Positions 135 to 9,937 of a stretch of DNA of 56,096 bases are shown in pieces. The notes under the pieces are model-generated. The model ran no database searches, had not been told where the DNA came from, and saw only the letters and a program-made list of their open reading frames with translations. Position numbers and translations under genes: made by a program. The stretch's first letter is position 1. The number at the start of each line of letters is the position of its first letter. The stretch comes from an uncultured Gammaproteobacteria bacterium (GTDB taxonomy: Bacteria; Patescibacteriota; Microgenomatia; UBA10105; UBA927), in assembly GCA_964445435.1 (NCBI GenBank), contig CAYUKU010000008.1:1-56096 (forward strand), read 5' to 3'.

Positions 135-689
135 TTCTTCATGATGCTCCTGCATCGCGCTGAGCGTAAGGGAGATAAAATCGCTCAGAGGTATTCCCAA
201 TTTTTCCTCGCACTGCCCAATCTGTTCGCGTTCGACGGCTGCGGCAAACGCCTTTTGTCCCCACTTTTTCATGACAGCGTCAACCGTGACTGATGAAAGC
301 TGCCTTTCCGGCCGAACCAGGGCTACCGCAACGATAAATCCGGTAAGCTCATCCACGGTCTCCAGCGCCCATTCCATTTCACCCTCAAGCTCTGCCAAGT
401 GCGTGCGCCTCCTGTTGTGAGACATCAGCGCATGGACAATAGGTCCATCAGTTTCACCGAGATTGCGCAACCACGAGAGCGTGTGTTTGGTGTGTTCATC
501 GGGGGCATTTTTCGTCTCCTCCCAGTCAGCATCATGAAGAAGTCCCAAAGTCTCCCACACGTCAGGATCGCCGCCCAATTTCACCGCAAGCGCACGCATT
601 GCATACCCGACTGCATACATATGCCGCCGGAGATTCTGATTTTTCGTGTGGTCGTGGAGTAACTGCCGGGCCTGCTCTTTCGTAATCAT
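123..689 (-). CDS. HD-domain (HDIG-type) metal-dependent phosphohydrolase, COG2316-like
   Basis: Motifs RRH...GLLHDADWE...H...SH...VDELTGFIVAVALVRP. Start overlaps the lysS stop (ATGA). Confidence 0.85.
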   Translation of the reverse strand: MITKEQARQLLHDHTKNQNLRRHMYAVGYAMRALAVKLGGDPDVWETLGLLHDADWEETKNAPDEHTKHTLSWLRNLGETDGPIVHALMSHNRRRTHLAELEGEMEWALETVDELTGFIVAVALVRPERQLSSVTVDAVMKKWGQKAFAAAVEREQIGQCEEKLGIPLSDFISLTLSAMQEHHEELGL

Positions 690-2989
690 GCCACGACTCC
701 CTCAAATTCGAGCGTACCGCCGCAGAATTTCATAATCATCGCAACCGACTCTCTGAGAGACTCCCGGACTTGCTCGGGTGAAATATCATAAACCCCGTCC
801 ACATTTATCCACACATCTGTCGACTCCTCGGTCACCATCGTACGCTTCGCATCCCTGTAGTTGAAGTCTATATTGTAGCCGCCATCACGATCATAATAGG
901 CTATTTCCTTTGCGGTATATGTCGTCGGCATCGTGTCTCCCAGAAGAAGAATTTCGTCGCCCTCTCCCGCATACCGAAGCACCGTGGGAAACTTGACGTT
1001 ATTAGCATCAAATGCGCCAACTGATATCCGATGTTTCATTACAACCAGGTTATATGCATCGACACAGGTATTGACCGTATACAGACCCTTCCCAAGGACA
1101 ACGCGCCGAAGAAGCGCCTCCGGTGACGGACGGCGGGAGTGCCAATCGATGCCCATTTCACGGTAGAGTTTGCGGTAGCTTGTTACTTCAGGATACGTCC
1201 CCAACTGCTCTGTCGTAAGCCCGGCAAGCGAGTCGAGAAACGCTTTTTTCTCCCGTTCGAGGTTGGGGTCTGATTTTATGATACGGACACCCTTTATAAG
1301 CGCAATCCCCACAGAAATGCTGGGAACTTTCGCTTTCAGCTGCGCGTCGATGACGAAATATTCAGGTTTCTGAATCAACTGGACACGTGCACCTTCTGAA
1401 GCAACACCACGGGTGTTAAGCGTCAACCGGGAAATTACCTGATCAACCGGGAATTTCCTCAAAAGCCATCCGGCTCTGGGTCCGTGTTCTTTATCAAGAA
1501 CCGCGATATACAACGCTTTGAACGCACTTTTGAGGTCCAGGTTCTTTTCTTTCGCAAGAAGAAAAATTTCCGACTGCAGTTTTTCAGGATCGGTAACCTG
1601 CCGCCAGATGACGGCAAGGTCGTTAAGAAACGCCCATTGCGCTTGTGTAAGGTGAAGTTGAGAGAGTGGCGCATCTGAAATGCGGTACCGATACTCATCT
1701 GGCGCATACTGGTCGAGCCACATTTGGGCATATGCGCTTCTTGTTTCCAGGATGTCGGCTTCAAATTTCGTCAATTTGGAACCTTTCAGTTGTTCGAATT
1801 TCGCCTTCACATCGACGTTCGGGAGCTGAAGGAAGTTGGCAATATCTCTAAATCGGGGCAACAGAAGTGTGGCGTCTTTAGGGGGGAGTTTATCGACTTG
1901 AGAAAGTTCAAATGCGCGGCTCAACTGTTCGTCTAATCCCGTATTGTATGCCTGCCAGCACCGGTCGTATTCATCGAAAAGATCTGCGATGGCCATCGTC
2001 CCCATCGGGTCAAATTCGATAGCCTGCCGATAGTCCGTTCGCGTGAAAAGAAACCGTCCGACCTCGGCAGGAAGAAGGTTCGTCAGATCCCGGCCTTTGA
2101 GTCCCAACCCCTTGGATGAGGACATTTTTTTCCCGCCGATGAGGAAGAATTCATACGGAAGATTATACGGATTTTCGATATGGAAAACATTTTTACATAA
2201 TTCTTTTGCGATATCCCGCGATCCGCCAGCAGAGGAATGATCCTTCCCAGCACCCTCAACCGTCACGCCCAACACCTTCCAATGCGCAGGCCAATCCACT
2301 TTCCATGGCAGCTTGCCCGGATGATGGGCGGGATTATTTTTGTCGGAAAACGGACTTACGCGTCCCTCATATCCGCAGCCTTTTGCCCAAGTAACCATCG
2401 ATGGTTCACAGGTATATGCAACCGTTTCCCCGTCCCAATCGTGAACTCTCGTCGTCCCCAATCTGCCGCATTTCTCACAAATCACCTGAAGCGGAAGCCA
2501 TCCTTTCTCCCGCTTCTTGCTGCCGCTGACCCGCTGGTAGATATCCTGAATTTCACTTGCGTGATCAAGAGCTTCTCTGATAACCCCGTCGAAGAGACCC
2601 GTGTGATACATATCCCATGATGAACGAAACTGTGCCCGCACGCCCAGGCTCATTAATACATTCTGGAAATCCTTCGTGAAATAATCTGCGAAACTCTCAT
2701 ATCCTTTCTGGGGTGATTTGGCAAGCCGAAGCGGTCTTCCCAGTTCATCGCCCATATGTGCCAGATCAGGCGGCAATCCGTCGACTGGATCAAAGTCGTT
2801 GAAAATATAGGTAAATGTGGCTTTCTTCCCTGCATCCGTAAGCGCGCGGTACACAAGATCGTGAACAATCGGCCCGCGAAGCGAACCGATATGGGCAAAC
2901 CCCGACGGGGTGAACATGTCGTCCACCCAGTATGGCGTGTGTTTGCCCGACGTTATGATTTCTTTTGCGATTTTATCAGCCCAAAACAT
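686..2989 (-). CDS. lysS: Class I lysyl-tRNA synthetase with C-terminal B3/4 (PheRS-beta editing-like) domain
   Basis: TPSGFAHIGS (HIGH-like), CEKCG and CEP...C Zn knuckles, KLPWKVDWPAHW, EGAGKDH, KMSSSKG. The last ~220 aa (RRPSPEALLRR...VDAYN...GAFD...FNYRD) look like a B3/4 domain. Confidence 0.92.
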   Translation of the reverse strand: MFWADKIAKEIITSGKHTPYWVDDMFTPSGFAHIGSLRGPIVHDLVYRALTDAGKKATFTYIFNDFDPVDGLPPDLAHMGDELGRPLRLAKSPQKGYESFADYFTKDFQNVLMSLGVRAQFRSSWDMYHTGLFDGVIREALDHASEIQDIYQRVSGSKKREKGWLPLQVICEKCGRLGTTRVHDWDGETVAYTCEPSMVTWAKGCGYEGRVSPFSDKNNPAHHPGKLPWKVDWPAHWKVLGVTVEGAGKDHSSAGGSRDIAKELCKNVFHIENPYNLPYEFFLIGGKKMSSSKGLGLKGRDLTNLLPAEVGRFLFTRTDYRQAIEFDPMGTMAIADLFDEYDRCWQAYNTGLDEQLSRAFELSQVDKLPPKDATLLLPRFRDIANFLQLPNVDVKAKFEQLKGSKLTKFEADILETRSAYAQMWLDQYAPDEYRYRISDAPLSQLHLTQAQWAFLNDLAVIWRQVTDPEKLQSEIFLLAKEKNLDLKSAFKALYIAVLDKEHGPRAGWLLRKFPVDQVISRLTLNTRGVASEGARVQLIQKPEYFVIDAQLKAKVPSISVGIALIKGVRIIKSDPNLEREKKAFLDSLAGLTTEQLGTYPEVTSYRKLYREMGIDWHSRRPSPEALLRRVVLGKGLYTVNTCVDAYNLVVMKHRISVGAFDANNVKFPTVLRYAGEGDEILLLGDTMPTTYTAKEIAYYDRDGGYNIDFNYRDAKRTMVTEESTDVWINVDGVYDISPEQVRESLRESVAMIMKFCGGTLEFEGVVA

Positions 2990-3049: not shown

Positions 3050-3514
3050 TTATTCGATATCAAGAATCTTATATGCCAATTTCCCCGCGGGAGCTTCTAC
3101 CTCCACCTTCTCCCCTACCTTCTTGCCCATGAGCGCCTTGCCCAAGGGAGATTCGTGAGAAATTTTCTTTTCTTTCGGATCTGCCTCCCACTCTCCAACG
3201 AGCATGAACACTTCTTTCTTACCGTTGATGTGAAGCGTCACTTTGCAGCCGACGTCCACTTGGGATTTCGTGTGGTTGGTAATGACTTTGGCACCATGAA
3301 GGATTTCTTCAAGCTCCAGGATGCGGCCGTCGATAAAGGAAAGGTCCTGTTTGGCCGCAGCGTACTCGCTGTTTTCCGATAAATCACCCAATTCGCGTGC
3401 AGCAGCGAGCCGCGCAACCGCATCTGGGCGTTTCACACTCACGAGTTCCTCATGTTCCTTCTTAAGTTCGGCTAATCCGTCTTTTGTAAGGAGTATTTTG
3501 TTATTCGGATCCAT
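3050..3514 (-). CDS. greA: Transcription elongation factor GreA
   Basis: LTKDG..EL..E...ARELGDLSENSEY.AAK, EADP...KISHESPLGKALMG. Confidence 0.97.
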   Translation of the reverse strand: MDPNNKILLTKDGLAELKKEHEELVSVKRPDAVARLAAARELGDLSENSEYAAAKQDLSFIDGRILELEEILHGAKVITNHTKSQVDVGCKVTLHINGKKEVFMLVGEWEADPKEKKISHESPLGKALMGKKVGEKVEVEAPAGKLAYKILDIE

Positions 3515-3660
3515 ACCGGGTTGTGAAATTTCGACCTTTGCCTTAATGCTTTTATTTCGAAATTTCAGCTTCCTTTCTTATGTATCTAGATTATTCTAGC
3601 CGGATAATCCAACACGCGCAGGCAAAGAAATAGAAGCGTGTCGAAATTCTACTACCCGGC
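3512..3660 (-). ncRNA. Conserved structured 5' leader element, copy 1 (greA)
   Basis: Identical blocks shared with 9744-9894: 34 nt (3512-3545 = 9744-9777), 13 nt, 9 nt, and 20 nt (3640-3659 = 9872-9891). Self-complementary ends. Confidence 0.8.
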
Positions 3661-3673
3661 AGAATTTAGGCCT

Positions 3674-3721
3674 AAAAAAACCTGCCCCATCTTCAAGCTG
3701 AGCAAAAAGAACTGGGAGCAG
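3674..3721 (-). terminator. Terminator/attenuator-like hairpin in the greA leader
   Basis: Minus strand CTGCTCCCA...TGGGGCAG followed by G-TTTTTTT, lying between the promoter and the leader element. Confidence 0.55.
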
Positions 3722-3747
3722 CGTAAATTAATTCAACTTACTTGTTT

Positions 3748-3776
3748 AGTGTAGCGAATTTGCCTTGTGCTGTCAA
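3748..3776 (-). promoter_or_regulatory. Sigma70-type promoter for greA
   Basis: Minus strand TTGACA-17 nt-TACACT. Confidence 0.75.
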
Positions 3777-3812
3777 GGAGAAATTGGTACAATTGAAGCT
3801 AGAATTGCCTTT

Positions 3813-3886
3813 GCCCCCATCGTCTAGCGGCCTAGGACGACGCCTTCTCAAGGCGTAGATCTCCGGTTCGAATCCGGATGGGGGTA
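3813..3886 (+). tRNA. tRNA-Glu(CTC), CCA not encoded
   Basis: Cloverleaf: GCCCCCA/TGGGGGT acceptor (G1.U72), ACGCC-TT-CTC-AA-GGCGT anticodon arm, TCCGG-TTCGAAT-CCGGA T arm. Extended -10 TGGTACAAT upstream. Confidence 0.96.
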
Positions 3887-3942
3887 CTAAATACCTATAG
3901 TTTGAATACATAAAACTCTTCTGATACAATACGGTTGCAATG

Positions 3943-3966
3943 AAGCACTATTTGCAGTGCTTTTTT
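3943..3966 (+). terminator. Intrinsic terminator downstream of tRNA-Glu
   Basis: AAGCACT-ATTTGC-AGTGCTT-TTTT. Confidence 0.7.
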
Positions 3967-4078
3967 GTAACAGTCCCTCTTTTACATGGGCCGTCTTTCG
4001 GGACGTATAGAAAGCAAAATCCATCTTGCTTTTGTTTTGTTCCGTCCCGAAAAACTTGATTACCAGAAGGAGTTGACC

Positions 4079-4156
4079 ATGGAAGAAATCAAGAAGAACT
4101 GGCCCATTGGGTTCATTGTTCTGGTCGCGGCCATCGTCACCGGCATCGCCGGCTGA
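4079..4156 (+). CDS. 25-aa single-helix membrane peptide (not in ORF track)
   Basis: AGAAGGAG SD, 6 nt, ATG. Translation MEEIKKNWPIGFIVLVAAIVTGIAG*. Confidence 0.55.
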   Translation: MEEIKKNWPIGFIVLVAAIVTGIAG

Positions 4157-4189
4157 CAGACACCGGTCAATCCGGCACGGAGTTCTATT

Positions 4190-5332
4190 TTAGGCCGCGA
4201 TAAGCTCCAGCATGCGTTTGGCTTTCACATCCCAGTCGATTGATTTGGCGTAGACAAGGGCATCACGGCTGATTTGCTTTCTCCGTTTCCCGTCAGATAG
4301 AAGCACGATAATCTCCTTGGCAAACTGCCCGCCGTCACCGAGCGGTACTCTTACAACTCCCTTATCATACGTCAGATGGGGCGTGTCATAGAGGATTCCC
4401 GGAAGCCCGCACGCCATACCCTCGTCAAGTGCAATATTACCGGTATCGAAACGTGAAGCTGAAACAAATATTTTACTCGACTTAAGAATCATCGCTTTGT
4501 CCACCCCGTCCTGCACACCTAAAAAAAGAATATTTCTTTCCAGATGCACCCTTCTGACTTTTTCTTTCAATGCAGATTCAAGAATTCCGCCGCCTACAAG
4601 GGCAAGCACGCGTTTTTTATCCCATGCGACAATCTTTGACCAGATATCGATAAGCTCAGATACACACTTCTGCGGATGAAATCTGCCCACAAACACGGCA
4701 TCATACTTAATCGACTGTTTCGGGACCGACCGGAAAAAATCATTGTCTACGCCGCCACCTACGGCAAGAACATCGCCTTCACCGAAACGTGTCTGATCGA
4801 CAAAGCGAGTCCGATCAAAAGGAGACGCCGTCAAGACCTTGCTCCCGCACATCTGTGCAATCCGAAGGGAAATCACCTCATTGATGTAAAAAAGAAATCC
4901 CTTCCATTTCCCTCCGCTGTAATCGCGGCCCCAGGGCTCCCTGGTAAAGATATAACTTGCCGTAACCGCTTTCACCCTGGGCTGGTACAGCTTCACCATG
5001 AATGTAGGCAGCATGTCCGGCAGGAAAAATGAGGAAGCGAAAACGACATCGCACCGTGGAAACCGATAGAAGAGACTATAGAGTGCGGACGTCAACGTCT
5101 TGCCGATATTGGCCAGCACGAATCCCAACCGATCGAGCCAGGAGGACCACCAGAGCACAATCCGGTGAGAAGAAATCCCCGCTCCCTCGCAAAATCCCTT
5201 TCCGGCTTCGTTGGTAATAATCCCAACATCATGTCCCCAACGCATCCAGCGTTTGGCGCACTCGACGAAAATCTTATCTCCGCCGGAAAGCGTATCGGTA
5301 TGAACGGAGTTGGCGAAAATAAGAATCTTCAT
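4190..5332 (-). CDS. Glycosyltransferase family 4 (GT-B)
   Basis: SGGD N-terminus, VFVGRFHPQK, FVSASRFDTGNIALDEGMACGLP. Confidence 0.88.
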   Translation of the reverse strand: MKILIFANSVHTDTLSGGDKIFVECAKRWMRWGHDVGIITNEAGKGFCEGAGISSHRIVLWWSSWLDRLGFVLANIGKTLTSALYSLFYRFPRCDVVFASSFFLPDMLPTFMVKLYQPRVKAVTASYIFTREPWGRDYSGGKWKGFLFYINEVISLRIAQMCGSKVLTASPFDRTRFVDQTRFGEGDVLAVGGGVDNDFFRSVPKQSIKYDAVFVGRFHPQKCVSELIDIWSKIVAWDKKRVLALVGGGILESALKEKVRRVHLERNILFLGVQDGVDKAMILKSSKIFVSASRFDTGNIALDEGMACGLPGILYDTPHLTYDKGVVRVPLGDGGQFAKEIIVLLSDGKRRKQISRDALVYAKSIDWDVKAKRMLELIAA

Positions 5333-6321
5333 GGGGTGAATACGTCATGATCCCTGCTAAACTCATTACCCATCAGGTACGGATTGCCTCCAATAGCGTG
5401 AATCTTCCCGTTAACGACCCCCGCAGCAAGCGCATAGCGTCCGACCGGCAGATCAGGCCGCCGGATCCACTTATTTTCCTTTATCTTATATTCGTGAACC
5501 TCACTTGAAACTGCCCATCCTTGTTCCCCGCCCAGGATATAAATACTCTCCCCCAAAGCAACAGCGGTAAATCCGCTCACGGCATACGGAAGGGGCGCCA
5601 ACGTTTCCCATGAATCCGTTTTCGGATCATATGCCTCATGTGTGGTGAGGTTATTAAACCGGGTTCCCGCATATCCTCCCAAAACAAACAGTTTCCCCAT
5701 CGCCCCGACTGCGCTTACGTGTTCGCGCGCCGTGGGCATCGGTTTGCCCGCTGACCAACTGTCCGTCTCGGGATTGTAGATATGAAGAAAGTTTGTGGGA
5801 ACAGTGTTTATGCCGCCACCAACGGCATAGAGTTTCCCGTCAAGCGCTGCCACCGCAAGGGCGCCTCTTGCCACAGGCAGGTCGGCTTTGCGTTCCCACA
5901 CATTTTTTTCAGGGTCGAAAGCGAAAACATCTGACCGCACGGTAATTCGAACGCCGTTTCCGCCCACGACATAGATCTTTCCTCCGAGCATCGCTGCCCC
6001 TGTATGATGAACTGAGACGGGATAGGAAGGAGCCTTTCGCCATGTATCGGTTTTTGCGTTGTAAACTTCAACTAAATCGGTCGGAAACCAGACCGATGGA
6101 AGGGCAATCCCTCCGATAAGATAGATATCGTTTTCCAATACGGCGCCGGCCGCTTCATGACGGAAAGACGGGAGGGCTGCGGCCTTCTCCCAGCGTCCCC
6201 CGGAAGAATCGGCGGATGTAGTCGAACCTACAAGCGCCCGATTTGGTCGGTACCATACATTGACGACAAAAAGCAGAATATAAAAGGGAATCAAAACAAT
6301 GCGAAGCATCAGCTCATTCAT
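5329..6321 (-). CDS. Membrane-anchored Kelch-repeat beta-propeller protein
   Basis: N-terminal hydrophobic helix, then six Kelch repeats (IY.IGG/VGG...YDP.T..W). Confidence 0.88.
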   Translation of the reverse strand: MNELMLRIVLIPFYILLFVVNVWYRPNRALVGSTTSADSSGGRWEKAAALPSFRHEAAGAVLENDIYLIGGIALPSVWFPTDLVEVYNAKTDTWRKAPSYPVSVHHTGAAMLGGKIYVVGGNGVRITVRSDVFAFDPEKNVWERKADLPVARGALAVAALDGKLYAVGGGINTVPTNFLHIYNPETDSWSAGKPMPTAREHVSAVGAMGKLFVLGGYAGTRFNNLTTHEAYDPKTDSWETLAPLPYAVSGFTAVALGESIYILGGEQGWAVSSEVHEYKIKENKWIRRPDLPVGRYALAAGVVNGKIHAIGGNPYLMGNEFSRDHDVFTP

Positions 6322-6366
6322 GATTGGTATAGTATCTCATTAAGCTTCCTATGATACAATCGGCGC

Positions 6367-7335
6367 ATGTACATGGGACGGCGATCACCGCATACGTCAA
6401 AGAATCCGCTTCGAATATTCTTCTGGTTTCTCGTCTTTCTTATCGGTACATCATGGTATGTGTTTTCCCTGTCACGAAAGCAAAACGAAATTATCTCACC
6501 GTTAGCTAGTAATTTCGAAAATGTGAGAGAACATTTTCCATCGCCTACCCACGGTTCACTTCTTGCCCTATTTTCCAAATCGAAAAAGCCCGACGAGCTC
6601 AGAGCTGCAGTGAAAAAAATTGCCGATGAGAAGTGGAAAAACTACTCCATATACGTAGTGGATCTCACATCAGCATTTGAAATGGGCATGAATGAAACTT
6701 CTATATACGATGCCGCATCGGTGAACAAAATTCCCATTCTCGTTACCCTGTACCATGAGGCAAGCGAGGGAAATATCGATTTCAACCGGACAATCACTAT
6801 GCAAGAAAAAGACCGGCAGGACTACGGAACGGGCAGCATGCGCTATGACCCGTCAGGAACCGTGTATTCCATAAAAACCCTCGCCCGCCTCATGATCCAA
6901 AAAAGCGATAATACCGCCGCATACATCATCGCCAATCACATCCTCAAGCTGAAAGATATCCAAGCATATGTAGAGGGCTTAGGAACAACACAAACGGACA
7001 TGATAAAGAATACGACATCAAACCGTGATATCGCGCTCCTTTTTCGCCTCATGTTTGAAGGAAAGATCGCAAACAAGGCACTCACCGAGGAAATGGTAGG
7101 TCTCCTGAAAAAGACGGATTTCGAAGATCGGCTGCCGGCACAGCTTCCAGACGACGCTATTGTTTATCACAAGATCGGTACTGGCGTTGGCGCTGTCCAT
7201 GACGTCGGAGTCGTGGAAAATGGGAAGACTAAATACTACATAGGGATATTTACCAGCAACATCCTCGATGAGGAACAAACCAGTGAAGAAGTGGCCCAAG
7301 TCTCCAAACTTGTCTACGAATTCATGACGAACTAA
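6367..7335 (+). CDS. Class A beta-lactamase-like serine hydrolase with N-terminal TM anchor
   Basis: AASVNK (SxxK), SDN and HKIG motifs. Confidence 0.85.
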
Positions 7336-9797
7336 GCTCTTAGTGTCACGGGCTCGCGTACTAGACCCCGGAAGCTCACCGATTTTACGAGCGCGACTTT
7401 CAGAACCTCGTCCATGTGCTCGACGAAGTGAAAGGTGAGATCTTCTGCGACCGTCTTGGGGATATCTTCGAGATCCTTCTTATTGTTCTTCGGAAGGATA
7501 ACGGTCTTAATGCCCGCGCGATGGGCCGCGATAACTTTCTCCTTCACACCCCCGATCTCAAGCACCCGCCCGCGAAGCGTAATTTCCCCGGTCATGGCAA
7601 CCGTACGTTTCACGGGAATCTTGGTAAGAGCAGATACCAATGCGGTCGCTATGGCGGCGCCTGCTGACGGACCGTCTTTCGGCACGGCTCCCTCCGGCAC
7701 ATGTACATGAATGTCAATCTTCTGGAAAAACTTCTCCGGTAATCCGAGCATCTTCCACCGGCTGCGAACATAGGAAAGGGCAGCCTGCGCCGACTCTTTC
7801 ATGACATCTCCCAACTGTCCCGTCAACGTAATGGCTCCGCGTCCCGGCATAAGCGCGGCTTCTATAAAGAGAATGTCTCCGCCCGCCTCTGTCCAGGCCA
7901 TACCCGTAGACATACCGACTTCATCCTTCTTCTCAGCCAAATACGAGGTGAATCTGTACGGCCCGAGGTATTCATGAAGCGATTTCGGCGTCACGGTGAT
8001 GTTTCTCTTCTTGCCCTCCGTGTCGGCAATTTTCTTGGCGGTCTTCCTGAAAATGGTCGCCATTTCGCGCTCAAGATTTCTCACACCCGCCTCTCTGGTA
8101 TATCGTCTGATAATCTCAAGGAGTGCCAAATCGGCTATTTTCAAGGTTTTCTCAGGAATCCCGTGGGCTTCCCGCTGTTTTTCGTAGAGGAATCCTTTGG
8201 CGATATGGAACTTCTCATCCTCGGTGTACCCGGCAAACCTGATGACCTCCAGGCGGTCTCGCAAAGCCGGAGGAATGGTATCCAGGACGTTGCATGTGGT
8301 GATGAAAAACACGTCCGACAGGTCGAACGGTACTTCGAGATAATGATCCGAAAACGCGGAATTCTGTTCCGGATCAAGCGCCTCCAAAAGTGCTGAAGAA
8401 GGATCGCCGCGGAAATCCGTTCCGACTTTATCGATTTCATCGAGCATAAATACCGGATTTTTTGTACCTGCCTGCTTGATGCCCTGGATAATTCTTCCGG
8501 GGAGAGCGCCGACATACGTCCTTCGATGTCCACGGATTTCCGCTTCATCGCGGATACCGCCTAATGACATTTTCACGAACTTCCGACCCAATGCTTTCGC
8601 AATCGACTTACCTATCGACGTCTTCCCCACTCCGGGAGGCCCGACGAAACATAGAATGGTCGGGGTAGCCCTCCCAATCTTTTGCGGCTTATCGTCCGCT
8701 GGCTTGGCAATCTGGCTTTTGAGCTTCATGACCGCCAGGTATTCCAGGATGCGCTCCTTTACTTTTTTAAGACCGTAGTGATCCTCATTGAGGACCTTCT
8801 CGGCGTCTTTCACGTTCACGTTATTCGTGCTTGCTACTGCCCACGGCAATTCCACGAGCGTATCAAGATAGGTACGAACGTACGACGCTTCGGGGTTGTA
8901 CGGGGACATTTGGGCTAGTCGGGACAGTTCTTTTTCCGCGCGTGCCCGTACGTCTGGGGGCATGCCGGATTTCTTCACTTTTTCTGCAAGCTCTTTTATG
9001 TCCTTGTTTTCATCGTTCTCACCCAGTTCCTTCTCGATGGTCTTGATGCGCTCGCGAAGAACCTGTTCCCGGATGTTTTTGTCGAACTTCTCCTGTGTTT
9101 TGTTGGCGATTTTGCGCTCAAGCTCCAAAATTTTTGTTTCCTTCGAGAGAAATGCAATTTCCTTCTCCAATCGCTCTTTTACCGACACGAGCTCGAGAAG
9201 CTCCTGTCTTTCGCTTGGTTTTATGTCCAAGACTCCTGCCACATGGTACGAAAGCGAAAGCGGCGGGATACCGGACATGATATTCATGAATGTCAAAAAG
9301 TCCATGGTCTTACCGAGTTTCACCGCGCTTCTCAATTCATTGGTAAGGTGATTGAAAAGTGCTTTCACTTCATCCGAATCCTGGACATCATCCTTGATTT
9401 CTTCTGCCCGGGCCACATAATACGGCTCTATCGCTTCAAAAGATGTCAACCGTACCTTGGAAATTCCGCGAACGAGAGCGTTAATCTCTCCTTCGTTCTT
9501 CATCATTTGCACAATCTCCCCGACCGTACCGATCTGATACAGGTCAGAGGGCGTCGGATCGTTCATGTTGGGATTCCTCTGCATGGCGAGGATGACTTTC
9601 CTGCCGGAGCTTTGGGCGGCTTCTATTGCAGAAACTGACCGCTGCCTGCCGAAGGTAAGAATCATCTCCGTCCCCGGAAAGACTATGCCGTCCCGGATCG
9701 GAACAACGGGAAGAATGATTGATGGTGAGAGTTCAAGTTCGTTCATACCGGGTTGTGAAATTTCGACCTTTGCCTTACCACGTTTTCGAAATTTCAA
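7332..9797 (-). CDS. lon: ATP-dependent protease La (Lon); start either TTG 9797 or ATG 9746
   Basis: LON N domain ([12 protein letters not shown]), Walker A GPPGVGKT, catalytic DGPSAG and GGVKEK. Confidence 0.97.
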
Positions 9798-9894
9798 AAT
9801 CCTTTCTTTAACGCAACGAGTTTATACCTTCTGGTAGTCTCAGCACGCGTACGGCAAAGATAAAAACGCGAGTCGAAATTCTACTACCCGGTAT
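9744..9894 (-). ncRNA. Conserved structured 5' leader element, copy 2 (lon)
   Basis: Same blocks as 3512-3660. Ends ATACCGGGT/ACCCGGTAT are perfectly complementary. Begins about 9 nt after the predicted transcription start. Confidence 0.8.
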
Positions 9895-9899
9895 AGCGT

Positions 9900-9926
9900 C
9901 TAGCACTCAAGTATACCAACTGCTAA
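9900..9926. promoter_or_regulatory. CIRCE-like HrcA operator overlapping the lon -10
   Basis: CTAGCACTC-N9-AACTGCTAA versus consensus TTAGCACTC-N9-GAGTGCTAA (3 mismatches). Confidence 0.7.
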
Positions 9927-9937
9927 ATCTTTGTCAA
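9910..9937 (-). promoter_or_regulatory. Sigma70-type promoter for lon
   Basis: Minus strand TTGACA-16 nt-TATACT with a TG extension. Confidence 0.75.

Follow-up and report, generated by a model that had tools for sequence, protein, structure and literature searches.

Two copies of one element in the greA and lon leaders

The locus raises the question of why two unrelated genes should share one leader. In the window, i.e. the whole 56,096-nt stretch of DNA analysed, greA (3050-3514, minus strand) and lon (7332-9746, minus strand), whose identities are backed by Pfam, have leaders with a similar 144-nt element that adjoins the ATG directly on its 5′ side (Table 1); sequence comparison gives 78% identity between the two copies. 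The similarity sets in sharply at CCGGGTAGTAG and ends at ACCCGG(T)ATG, and the 27-nt and 20-nt end motifs had 0 occurrences in 100 shuffles of the window. The first-pass annotation had taken the leader for a shared control device of transcription and protein quality-control genes, with a MITE as the alternative. The shared blocks that it listed (a 34-nt 3′ block, a 20-nt 5′ block, AAGAAAGGA, TGAAATTTCGA and CTTTGCC/GGCAAAG) are all present in both copies.

The promoter of each gene drives transcription through the element, which becomes part of the leader. Both promoters are sigma-70-like and lie upstream of the element copies; the one proposed earlier for lon was recovered with a spacer of 16, and greA has its like with a spacer of 17. 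The accompanying view that most genes here are leaderless was too strong, as a TAnnnT box ends 4-10 nt before the start in 14 of 55 crude gene calls, compared with 8% at random positions.

Table 1 Features of the two element copies and their promoters in the window
Feature	Position	Strand	Remarks
MITE copy 1, 144 bp	3516-3659	-	last 144 nt of greA leader; nhmmer 91 bits sense, 21 bits antisense
Copy 1 5′ TIR, CCGGGTAGTAGAATTTCGAC	3640-3659	-	near-invariant across 71 copies
Copy 1 3′ TIR, GTCGAAATTTCACAACCCGG	3516-3535	-	
Copy 1 right TSD, TATG	3512-3515	-	includes greA start codon 3512-3514; GreA N-terminal domain from residue 7 (Pfam)
Copy 1 left TSD, now TCTG	3660-3663	-	upstream ATG lost; judged against relatives' empty sites
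Copy 1 internal SD-like motif, GAAAGGA	3571-3577	-	most conserved motif of family interior
Copy 1 H2 hairpin, 5′ strand, TGAAATTTCGA	3557-3567	-	partner 3524-3534 in 3′ TIR; between SD and AUG
Copy 1 helix b, CTTTGCC	3621-3627	-	partner b′ GGCAAAG 3536-3542, beside 3′ TIR; covariation
greA promoter, TTGACA-17-TACACT	3748-3776	-	upstream of element; kept in element-free relatives
MITE copy 2, 144 bp	9748-9891	-	nearly whole lon leader; nhmmer 98.5 bits sense, 22.8 bits antisense
Copy 2 5′ TIR	9872-9891	-	
Copy 2 3′ TIR	9748-9767	-	
Copy 2 right TSD, TATG	9744-9747	-	includes lon start codon 9744-9746
Copy 2 left TSD, now TATA	9892-9895	-	upstream ATG lost; judged against relatives' empty sites
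Copy 2 internal SD-like motif, GAAAGGA	9800-9806	-	
Copy 2 H2 hairpin, 5′ strand	9786-9796	-	partner 9756-9766
Copy 2 helix b, CTTTGCC	9853-9859	-	partner b′ 9768-9774; covariation and centroid fold
lon promoter, TTGACA-16-TATACT	9910-9937	-	kept in relatives, there ~15 nt before ATG

Terminal repeats, duplications and empty sites

The two leaders almost certainly contain copies of a MITE family, 134-144 bp long, of Candidatus Gottesmanbacteria (Patescibacteria/CPR). The element is non-coding, its sole reading frame being a variable one of 3-52 codons that enters from the flank, and its ends are imperfect 20-nt TIRs, with 3 mismatches between them, which are near-invariant in 71 copies. Direct repeats of 4 bp or more, free of mismatches, flank 53 of the 71; the TSD has 4 bp, sometimes 5 bp, and reads TATG in 39 cases, ATGA in 6 and TATGA in 4, besides CATG, TATGG, TGAAA and TGAAG. 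The flanking repeat seen earlier at lon is a 4-bp TATG and not TA, and its left copy has mutated in both genes.

In close relatives that lack the element (GreA 84-97% identical, Lon 85-90% identical) the promoters are the same, and the site is empty with a single TATG, both at greA (AAATTATGGATCC; L121/L122/L123) and at lon (TAGACGTTATGAATGAAC; L125/L126/L127), which identifies the greA and lon copies as lineage-specific insertions. A conserved link of the leader to these two genes is thus contradicted, and it is the MITE alternative that is borne out, by TIRs, TSDs, empty sites in relatives and many copies per genome: the MAGs JACRMP01 and DJJA01 have at least 8 element loci each, and 2 loci fall in this 56-kb window. 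In ~1 Mb of DNA searched we found no TIR pair 0.6-3 kb apart around a gene, as a transposase-encoding partner would show; IS1380-like elements (CC ends, 4-5-bp repeats) are no more than a possible lead to the IS family of the MITE.

Placement at start codons

Public genomes and metagenomes, the latter with 84 stretches giving a match, yielded 71 non-redundant full copies and 2 divergent ones, which were detected by the covariance model alone and stand, in sense, at the starts of pyrG and a tRNA_bind gene. All 73 copies are in sense orientation to the gene, and 71 of the 73 end at most 1 base from the native start codon, the remaining two lying 2 and 7 nt before it. Relative to the element end, the start codon of the 71 full copies is at +1 (61 copies), 0 (6), −1 (2), +2 (1) or +7 (1), and in the two copies at −1 a GTG start is formed with the last G of the element. 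Since the N-terminal domains recognised by Pfam start between residues 1 and 7, the starts at the element edges are native. The downstream genes belong to at least 58 unrelated families, mostly essential, and include ribosomal-protein, tRNA-synthetase, dnaG, secA, atpD and lon genes. Of what had been expected from a MITE, the many copies and the TSDs are found, while the random positions and orientations are not, all copies being in sense and at or close to starts.

TATG sites in the window and in relatives number 69 at starts and 174 in non-coding DNA, which gives P<1e-20 for all copies being at starts; a TATG target preference by itself cannot explain the placement. Three or four copies have their TIR variants swapped, and their interior is still in sense to the gene. 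The TSD of the surviving copies includes the start codon of the gene, usually as TATG, and since the duplicated bases include this codon, the native ATG reappears at the 3′ edge of the element.

Conserved interior features and a putative split ribosome-binding site

The interiors are only ~54% identical across the family, and three features are kept in them: the SD motif GAAAGGA(G), the H2 hairpin and two long-range helices that are rich in compensatory changes. Of the interior motifs, GAAAGGA is conserved best, and ordinary genes of the window use the same motif as SD (e.g. GAAAGGAGACTCTATG). A strict SD (AAGGA/AGGAG/GGAGG) is found in 62 of 71 copies; among the other nine, four lack an SD altogether (L016, L052, L065, L104), near-variants occur in five (L007, L011, L046 and two at L114), and all nine still precede intact genes. 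The distance from SD to AUG is 49-56 nt in the sequence (about 52) and 10-13 nt across H2; the predicted anatomy of a split ribosome-binding site, with SD, hairpin and AUG at working distance, is present in 62/71 copies. In the divergent pyrG copy the order of SD, hairpin, 9 nt and AUG is retained with different hairpin sequences.

The best explanation of the whole is in our view a start-codon MITE with a portable split ribosome-binding site, which we hold with a probability of roughly three in four. At equilibrium the two TIRs would pair in a stem of ~20 bp, with the AUG region buried. The element carries an AU-rich stretch, the canonical SD of the host (GAAAGGAG) and H2, in which an internal half-copy of the TIR is predicted to pair with the 3′ TIR; formation of H2 would pull the 3′ TIR out of the long stem and leave the SD 11-12 nt from the AUG. 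Whether the MITE in this way supplies a portable split ribosome-binding site that keeps the gene expressed is a separate matter, for which we set the odds slightly short of even. If the gene is kept working only by sense insertions at the start codon, the placement would be explained.

The minimum-energy fold of both leaders is the terminal stem, as the first-pass annotation had proposed for its State A (z-scores −2.7 and −2.4), and so it is in most family copies. The local hairpin of State B, TGAAATTTCGA with TCGAAATTTCA, is present in both window copies too. The pairing of CTTTGCC with GGCAAAG was also confirmed, not as the pseudoknot described, for it is nested in the terminal stem and pseudoknotted only with respect to the local hairpin. 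The two-hairpin fold is ~10.7 kcal/mol less stable than the terminal stem, and H2 formation would therefore need kinetic help. Ensemble calculations give the 9-nt stretch that precedes the AUG a probability of 0.11 of being unpaired when the leader is complete, and of 0.48 once the 5′ arm is taken away. Most copies retain 8-12 Watson-Crick pairs in H2; since G-U substitutions are not in excess over A-C there, H2 could be a TIR half-copy in decay and not an RNA helix under selection. The covariation anticipated for a structured RNA was found, and it is strongest in helices a-a′ and b-b′, with many compensatory changes; these lengthen the inhibitory terminal stem, not H2, and are left unexplained by the portable ribosome-binding-site model. 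Two divergent copies show compensated changes inside the TIR stem itself. Two-state folding, or RNase III release of a short-leader mRNA, may be ways in which the element is tolerated in an expressed gene.

A broader proposal, which we offer tentatively, is a mobile translation-start cassette: a dimer-like MITE with outer TIRs for transposition, whose interior (AU-rich standby region, SD, hairpin) and covarying two-state fold would be selected to restart translation at any start codon hit, so colonising the first codons of essential genes in a leaderless-rich genome. The two states would be the terminal stem lengthened by a-a′ and b-b′, and the two local hairpins, and the cassette may impose a common switch or timer, from translatable to closed or RNase III-sensitive.

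Other routes to expression

In a rival scenario RNase III cuts the ~20-25-bp TIR stem of this MITE (plus a-a′ or b-b′) and releases an mRNA with a ~10-nt leader and no SD. The helices a-a′ and b-b′, with their many compensatory changes, would lengthen its substrate; this stem is the fold of lowest energy in both window copies and most others, and has compensated changes in the two divergent copies. The product would resemble those native mRNAs of these genomes that have a short leader or none; in the relatives, the native lon mRNA has ~8 nt from the predicted transcription start to the ATG and no SD. Correia elements provide a precedent, as they are cleaved at their TIRs by RNase III (PMC10969869). 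This route leaves the conserved SD and its fixed spacing to H2 unexplained, and we regard it as doubtful, although the most serious competitor of the split site.

Coupling through an upstream frame is in our opinion unlikely. Here the upstream copy of the ATG, with the original SD or a leaderless 5′ end, would start a short uORF (typically MPGSRISTR..., 16 codons), and ribosomes crossing the 5′ TIR of the same MITE would melt the terminal stem and free the downstream start. The upstream start-codon copy is kept in 59/71 copies (57 ATG, 2 GTG), the frame from the TATG duplication is open across the entire 5′ TIR, and in the upstream flanks 23 copies have a −10 box whose end lies 4-10 nt from that ATG, while 8 have an SD; the rise in start-region accessibility from 0.11 to 0.48 without the 5′ arm is also as expected. 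However, the upstream ATG is lost in 12/71 copies, both window copies included (CTG, ATA), and the uORF varies from 3 to 52 codons, with only 3 in the ATGA class.

Other origins of the shared leader

A purely selfish MITE, placed by the target choice of its transposase (TATG/ATGA) alone and with no function at the RNA level, appears improbable. Shorter elements with the same TIRs also show sequence-specific 4-bp duplications (TTGA, CAAA), which suggests that the target preference is real. Against this, non-coding TATG sites outnumber those at start codons by ~2.5 to 1 and none is occupied, the orientation tracks the interior and not the TIR variant, duplications other than TATG (TGAAA, TGAAG, CGA, CATG) still give a start codon at the 3′ edge, and the SD is conserved against ~54% identity elsewhere in the interior.

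The original proposal, a cis-regulatory RNA dedicated to the joint control of greA and lon (as a thermosensor, riboswitch or protein-binding switch), is very hard to maintain. It would account for a structured leader with two mutually exclusive folds and covarying helices, and the leaders indeed match no known Rfam family at gathering score, as foreseen, the only match at E<=10 being CRISPR-DR47 (18.9 bits, E=0.54). Yet the closest relatives lack the element at either locus, TSDs are present, and many TSD-flanked copies occur per genome; among the element-bearing genes of 58 families there is no second greA, other greA genes being without a copy, and one Lon-like AAA+ gene (L012/L017). A gene-specific greA/lon regulon is refuted by the empty sites in the nearest relatives together with the 58 unrelated gene families.

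Least credible of all is a palindrome-associated element of the IS200/IS605 type, with single-strand transposition and insertion 3′ of a fixed tetranucleotide without duplication: the orientation is strictly uniform and subterminal hairpins exist at both ends, the right one ending 9-10 nt from the element end, but such an origin is contradicted by the genuine 20-bp TIRs and by flanks that vary in sequence and register (ATGA, TGAAA, CGA, CATG, CCATG) and match on both sides like duplications.

Comparison with known systems

MITEs are usually described as dispersed in intergenic DNA. In the literature searched, no MITE family was described with all known copies gene-facing and nearly all abutting a start codon; the abutment, the duplication of the ATG, the uniform gene-facing orientation and the element's own ribosome-binding motif are unusual for such an element. 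As known effects of MITEs, a 2024 review lists promoters, IHF sites, RNase cleavage, gene disruption and small RNAs (PMC10969869).

The Correia/NEMIS elements of Neisseria, whose TIRs give a long RNA stem (PMC10969869), are likewise non-coding, multi-copy TIR elements of ~100-150 bp, frequently located immediately 5′ of genes, whose transcripts include them. They come from another host phylum and are unrelated in sequence to the present MITE; Correia elements show no restriction to start codons or to a single orientation, and act via their own promoters and an IHF site. They also duplicate TA, whereas the Gottesmanbacteria MITE has a 4-bp duplication that includes the ATG, no consistent internal promoter, and an SD. 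The Rickettsia palindromic elements (RPE), mobile, palindromic and ~150 bp long, persist in essential genes through insertions compatible with function (PMC10969869). RPEs are in frame and translated within the protein, in contrast to the present MITE, which lies outside the coding sequence, at the first codon, and whose frame is not conserved (lengths 134-144 nt, stop codons). ERIC elements of Yersinia and other enterobacteria are transcribed TIR repeats with an orientation-dependent effect on mRNA (PMC10969869), mainly at 3′ ends via RNase E and with no link to start codons.

In phage T4 genes 25 and 38, a hairpin leaves the SD 11 nt instead of 27 nt, and 5 nt instead of 22 nt, from the AUG, respectively (PMC3014915). 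The MITE would similarly have a distant SD brought near the AUG by an intervening hairpin, from ~52 to 11-12 nt. The T4 split sites are fixed in single genes and proven by mutation and probing, whereas the putative MITE module is mobile, precedes dozens of genes and is known from its anatomy. If SD and hairpin act as proposed, the family would be a natural portable translation-initiation module, and would be an example of a parasite that settles on the most sensitive base pairs of essential genes and yet does not kill its host. It also bears on start choice in CPR bacteria, which have leaderless genes next to SD-led ones: wherever the MITE inserts, a gene that was leaderless or had a short leader acquires a structured leader of 150 nt. 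For annotation, this MITE repeat should be masked before riboswitch-like leaders are called in Patescibacteria genomes.

The Chunjie MITE of Geobacter uraniireducens has reportedly inserted within an operon without breaking it, with few insertions and no family-wide start-codon rule or SD. A similar situation is seen at L102, where two copies of the Gottesmanbacteria MITE lie between coupled genes of one operon.

Related blocks precede greA and lon

In the window, greA and lon are each preceded by a 144-nt block (see table), and the two blocks share 78% identity. The similarity starts sharply at CCGGGTAGTAG and stops at ACCCGG, one base 5' of the ATG, and the end motifs have no occurrences in the shuffled window. 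In both leaders the minimum-energy fold is a long end-to-end stem (z-scores −2.7 and −2.4), and an alternative local hairpin is found in each. The first-pass annotation had described such a shared, structured leader, and given the abrupt blocks, the end-pairing folds and the alternative hairpin, this observation stands. It was also right that no known Rfam family matches: no hit reached the gathering score, and the sole match at E ≤ 10 (CRISPR-DR47, 18.9 bits) is noise. Searches of the 56-kb window with the end motifs, a profile and a covariance model found no copies beyond these two.

For an empty-site test, we fetched the contigs encoding the closest GreA and Lon proteins. The greA relatives (GreA 97%, 94% and 84-85% identical) have the divergent tRNA-Glu, the TTGACA-17-TACACT promoter and the leader, and the element is absent; their site reads ...TAAATTATGGATCC..., where the window has ...TAAATTCTG-element-TATGGATCC. 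The lon relatives (Lon 90%, 90% and 85% identical) read TTGACA-16-TATACTTGAGTGCTAGACGTTATGAATGAAC, and the window ...GACGCTATA-element-TATGAACGAAC. Profile and covariance-model searches returned zero copies in the 20-kb greA and lon loci of these relatives. The empty sites, with their single TATG, show that both window copies are lineage-specific insertions with TATG duplication, the left duplicate having since mutated.

Coordinates of genes, element copies and neighbouring features (L numbers, fetched loci of other genomes or metagenomes)
Feature	Locus	Positions	Strand	Remarks
greA	window	3050-3514	minus	preceded by 144-nt block 3516-3659
lon	window	7332-9746	minus	preceded by 144-nt block 9748-9891
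Native greA leader stem	window	3674-3721	minus	
Lysyl-tRNA synthetase fusion	window	686-2989	minus	767 aa
Divergent subfamily copy before pyrG	L021	3597-3738	minus	TIRs CCAAG.../...CTTGG, duplication CCATG
Copy before tRNA_bind gene	L102	1545-1681		same operon as next
Copy before proS	L102	2029-2159		
Copy inside gene start	L016	5990-6127		
Copy inside gene start	L114	4430-4571		
Copy read through in frame	L067	578-717		
Single-hairpin element	L013	2624-2681		
Single-hairpin element	L005	6329-6393		
Single-hairpin element	L105	7907-7972		
Single-hairpin element	L109	893-958		
Single-hairpin element	L113	1305-1370		
Mobile island	L123	3400-9900		
CBASS-like pair and type IV secretion genes	L125	14200-21900		near lon

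The element is a MITE

The element ends in 20-nt imperfect TIRs, CCGGGTAGTAGAATTTCGAC and the reverse complement of GTCGAAATTTCACAACCCGG. Scanning one genome per GTDB species for either end gave 36 stretches, including about 25 full copies in Candidatus Gottesmanbacteria MAGs, two of which carry eight element loci each; the remaining matches were single ends scattered over unrelated phyla, about as many as chance would produce. Metagenome contigs scanned in the same way yielded 84 stretches, and after removal of identical sequences there were 71 full-length copies, all 134-144 nt long except for three atypical ones of 121-128 nt. Perfect 4- or 5-bp direct repeats flank 53 of the 71 (39 TATG, 6 ATGA, 4 TATGA and one each of TATGG, CATG, TGAAG and TGAAA), and in most of the others the flanks are one base apart. 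The flanking repeats show that the copies are insertions.

The TIRs, direct repeats, empty sites and many dispersed copies establish the element as a MITE, which the first-pass annotation had held only as an alternative. Five of the six features of MITEs were found, the exception being a transposase-encoding partner: in the ~1 Mb of fetched DNA there was no TIR pair enclosing a gene and no transposase-encoding element. The interpretation the annotation preferred, a dedicated regulator of greA and lon, fails on the empty sites in relatives and on the copies before 58 families of reading frames; the element likewise qualified neither as a gene-specific leader nor as a member of a known Rfam family. 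An IS200/IS605-type element carrying its own terminal TATG is excluded, as the flanks vary and agree on both sides.

Like a Correia-type MITE, the element is a co-transcribed repeat that forms a stem, and like the Rickettsia RPEs it is tolerated at essential genes. The MITE effects compiled in a 2024 review (PMC10969869) do not include the placement, the strand rule, the ATG duplication or the SD (Shine-Dalgarno) cargo of this element. Our literature search found no paper with these TIR sequences, and none that deals with Patescibacteria MITEs or with MITEs at start codons.

Insertions lie at start codons and face the gene

All 71 full-length copies face a gene and nearly all abut its start codon, which lies at +1 from the element end in 61 copies, at 0 in six, at +2 and +7 in one each, and at −1 in two (in L016 and L114), where GTG is made of the last G of the element and the duplicated TG. 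The Pfam-checked genes downstream encode ribosomal proteins (L1, L25, L27, L31, L33, S13, S17), SerRS, AspRS, ProRS, DnaG, SecA, a release factor, SmpB, LexA, ATP synthase beta, MurA, triosephosphate isomerase, YbaB, PilN, MacB and a Lon-like AAA+ protein. Their N-terminal domains start at residues 1-7, so the ATG at the element edge is the native start. Profile scores of 70-123 bits in sense against at most 42 bits in antisense make the orientation call independent of the near-palindromic ends. A covariance-model search, which depends less on exact ends, added two divergent copies, before pyrG and a tRNA_bind gene, both in sense and at the start codon.

TATG stands at the start in ~40% of the crude gene calls of the window, and the preferred target is therefore abundant at starts. 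Based on such crude calls, 69 TATG sites of the window and five relatives' loci coincide with predicted starts, and 174, counted over both strands, are non-coding; with at least 39 independent TATG-type insertions, all at starts, P is below 1e-20, in a copy search that needed one intact TIR and could have let decayed copies elsewhere escape. Target preference alone cannot account for this placement. The start codon is still at the 3' edge where the duplication is not TATG, and in three or four copies (L034, L050, L116 and perhaps L104) the TIR variants are swapped while the interior still faces the gene, which shows that orientation follows the cargo and not the ends. We read the placement as the work of two factors, a transposase preference for TATG/ATGA-like sites and, added to it, a filter imposed by gene expression.

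Some individual copies deserve description. Those in L016 and L114 inserted two codons into the gene, with a duplication of TGAAG or TGAAA, and the GTG rescues the frame. In L067 the upstream ATG copy reads stop-free through the element in frame with the downstream gene, a possible 47-residue N-terminal extension as judged from the frame. At L102 the upstream stop and the proS ATG overlapped before the insertion (TGATATG), and the older of the two copies has compensated changes in both TIRs (CCAGGAAGT / ACTTTCTGG).

Start signals at the insertion sites

The upstream flank keeps the gene's original start signals beside the left duplicate. The upstream ATG copy is kept in 57 copies; a TAnnnT box ends 4-10 nt before it in 23, corresponding to a leaderless or very short leader, and a GGAG-type SD motif precedes it in eight, the rest having neither by these strict patterns. 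The claim that most genes of the window are leaderless was correct in kind and overstated in extent: 14 of the 55 crude gene calls have the box before the start, and its frequency at random positions is 8%. TACAAT-N6-ATG starts are numerous in the window (upstream of 2989, 6367, 18875, 42686 and 55018, for example), and this arrangement suggests leaderless mRNAs.

Anatomy and covariation

Read in mRNA sense, the element consists of the 5' TIR, segment a, which is short (ACGCT), segment b (CATTGCG or a variant), a degenerate internal repeat of the 3' TIR (GTCGAA-TAG-ACTACCTGG), a variable AU-rich stretch with many indels, GAAAGGA(G), 2-3 nt, a degenerate internal copy of the inner 5' TIR (TGAAATTTCGAC), segment a' (AGCGT), AAAA, segment b' (CGCAATG) and the 3' TIR. 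The ends are nearly invariant and the interiors ~54% identical on average. The layout resembles a dimer of two hairpin units joined head to tail, and single-unit elements of 58-77 nt with the same ends are present in other Patescibacteria. In those of 58-68 nt, a TTGA duplication falls exactly on the promoter −35 hexamer, which is rebuilt at the right edge (e.g. CCTGG, then TTGACT-17-TATAAT); a 77-nt relative has the duplication CAAA. It may be that this transposon family favours sites at which duplication restores a functional motif.

Two folds are predicted. State A is a 20-bp helix between the outer TIRs, lengthened by a-a' or b-b'; state B consists of two hairpins, H1 and H2, in each of which an outer TIR is paired with its internal half-copy. 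Averaged across 66 copies, the energy was −46.7 kcal/mol without constraint and −36.0 kcal/mol with the two halves folded locally.

RNAalifold on the MAFFT alignment recovered the invariant terminal stem only, and the interior helices were found by register-aware counting and model-based realignment. Helix a-a', directly inside the 5' TIR, has five Watson-Crick positions in nearly all copies and more than 15 distinct pair sets, including ACGCT/AGCGT, ACGAT/ATCGT, ACGTC/GACGT, ACGCC/GGCGT, ATGCT/AGCAT, GCGCT/AGCGC, CATGTC/GACATG and ACGTTTT/AAAACGT. On the plain MAFFT alignment, two-sided changes occur in 5/5 pairs, 89% of cells pair, no shuffle of 500 matched the score and slid registers collapse. 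Helix b-b', directly inside the 3' TIR, has at least six contiguous pairs at constant position in 57 of 71 copies and at least 12 pair sets (among them CATTGCG/CGCAATG, CGTTGT/ACAACG, CTTTGCC/GGCAAAG, CTTTGTC/GACAAAG, TCATGCG/CGCATGA, AATTGCG/CGCAATT and GTCGC/GCGAC); double changes appeared in 7/7 pairs after model-based realignment, which is biased to the structure supplied. The orthologous copies L018 and L038, with conserved flanks and interiors 80% identical, differ by compensated changes in both helices, and two divergent copies have compensated changes within the TIR stem too. Since the segments run a < b < a' < b', the two helices cross; they would either stack on the terminal stem as a pseudoknot or extend it in two alternative ways.

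In H1 and H2 one strand is the invariant TIR, which precludes double changes; 8-12 Watson-Crick pairs are retained in H2, with no wobble bias. As a strand-of-action test, G-U versus A-C substitutions gave no signal in a-a', b-b' or H2. H1 alone has a G-U excess (96 G-U against 3 A-C at inner positions), a weak hint dominated by two polymorphic columns. Substitutions alone do not separate selection on RNA from selection on single-stranded DNA. Pairing of the a-b linker with the SD occurs in a few copies and is not general.

How the genes may be expressed

At greA and lon the element sits between the native promoter and the native ATG, and must thus form part of the mRNA leader of genes that cannot be silenced. 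At equilibrium, the 9 nt before the AUG are unpaired with P = 0.11 and the AUG with 0.26; with the leader closed on itself, something must open it. GAAAGGA(G) is the sole interior motif conserved in sequence with no covarying partner. The motif qualifies as a strict SD in 62 of 71 copies and is the same as the SD of ordinary window genes. It lies 49-56 nt from the AUG, of which H2 takes up 40, the remainder being 10-13 nt (mostly 11-12). The same arrangement operates in T4 genes 25 and 38, where a hairpin was shown experimentally to cut the SD-AUG spacing from 27 to 11 nt and from 22 to 5 nt (PMC3014915); in the element it is predicted from sequence. The divergent pyrG copy keeps GAAAGGAGGAG (SD), a hairpin of different sequence, 9 nt and the AUG, and its local fold is the minimum-energy fold.

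We propose, with a probability of roughly 0.45, that H2 would bring the SD to working distance of the AUG, making the element a portable split ribosome-binding site. Because H1 and H2 would be the first to fold as the leader is transcribed, the state open to translation may be a kinetic product. In sum, this is a MITE family confined to start codons that probably carries its own module for starting translation.

Cutting of the terminal stem by RNase III is an unlikely but serious competitor: it would best explain the kept pairing of a-a', b-b' and the TIR stem and would remake a short leader like that native to lon, but leaves the SD unexplained. Still less probable is that ribosomes translate a short upstream frame from the duplicated ATG and melt the 5' arm, as this ATG is lost in 12 of 71 copies, both window copies included, and the frame varies from 3 to 52 codons (16 being commonest); a conserved upstream ORF or peptide as an essential part is rejected on the same counts. 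The split ribosome-binding site and these two mechanisms are not mutually exclusive. An internal promoter is not a general feature: the best sigma-70-like scores average 7.4, against 6.6 in antisense and 6.2 ± 2.2 in shuffles, their position is inconsistent across copies, and a promoter scan finds none inside the window copies.

Neighbouring features

The native greA leader of the window has a GC-rich stem, CTGCTCCCA...TGGGGCAG, followed by U7 ~15 nt before the ATG, which is kept in relatives that do not carry the element. This stem may act as an attenuator or terminator within the leader and brings to mind the greA leader of E. coli; its loop is too long for the terminator scan, which passed over it. 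Nearby, a gene encodes a class I lysyl-tRNA synthetase domain with a B3_4 domain joined to its C-terminus, and this fusion also adjoins greA in the relatives L121 and L123. In L123, from the 94%-related genome, tRNA-Glu and greA are separated by a mobile island that carries serine recombinase, relaxase-like and TrwB-like genes, and the lon relative L125 has a CBASS-like pair (SMODS/CD-NTase and Cap15-like) with type IV secretion genes; neither is in the window. Several assemblies titled 'uncultured Gammaproteobacteria' (L002, L009, L016, L019, L030, L034, L036 and L126) carry the element, or a 90%-identical Lon, in Gottesmanbacteria gene order, and these titles are probably a mislabel.
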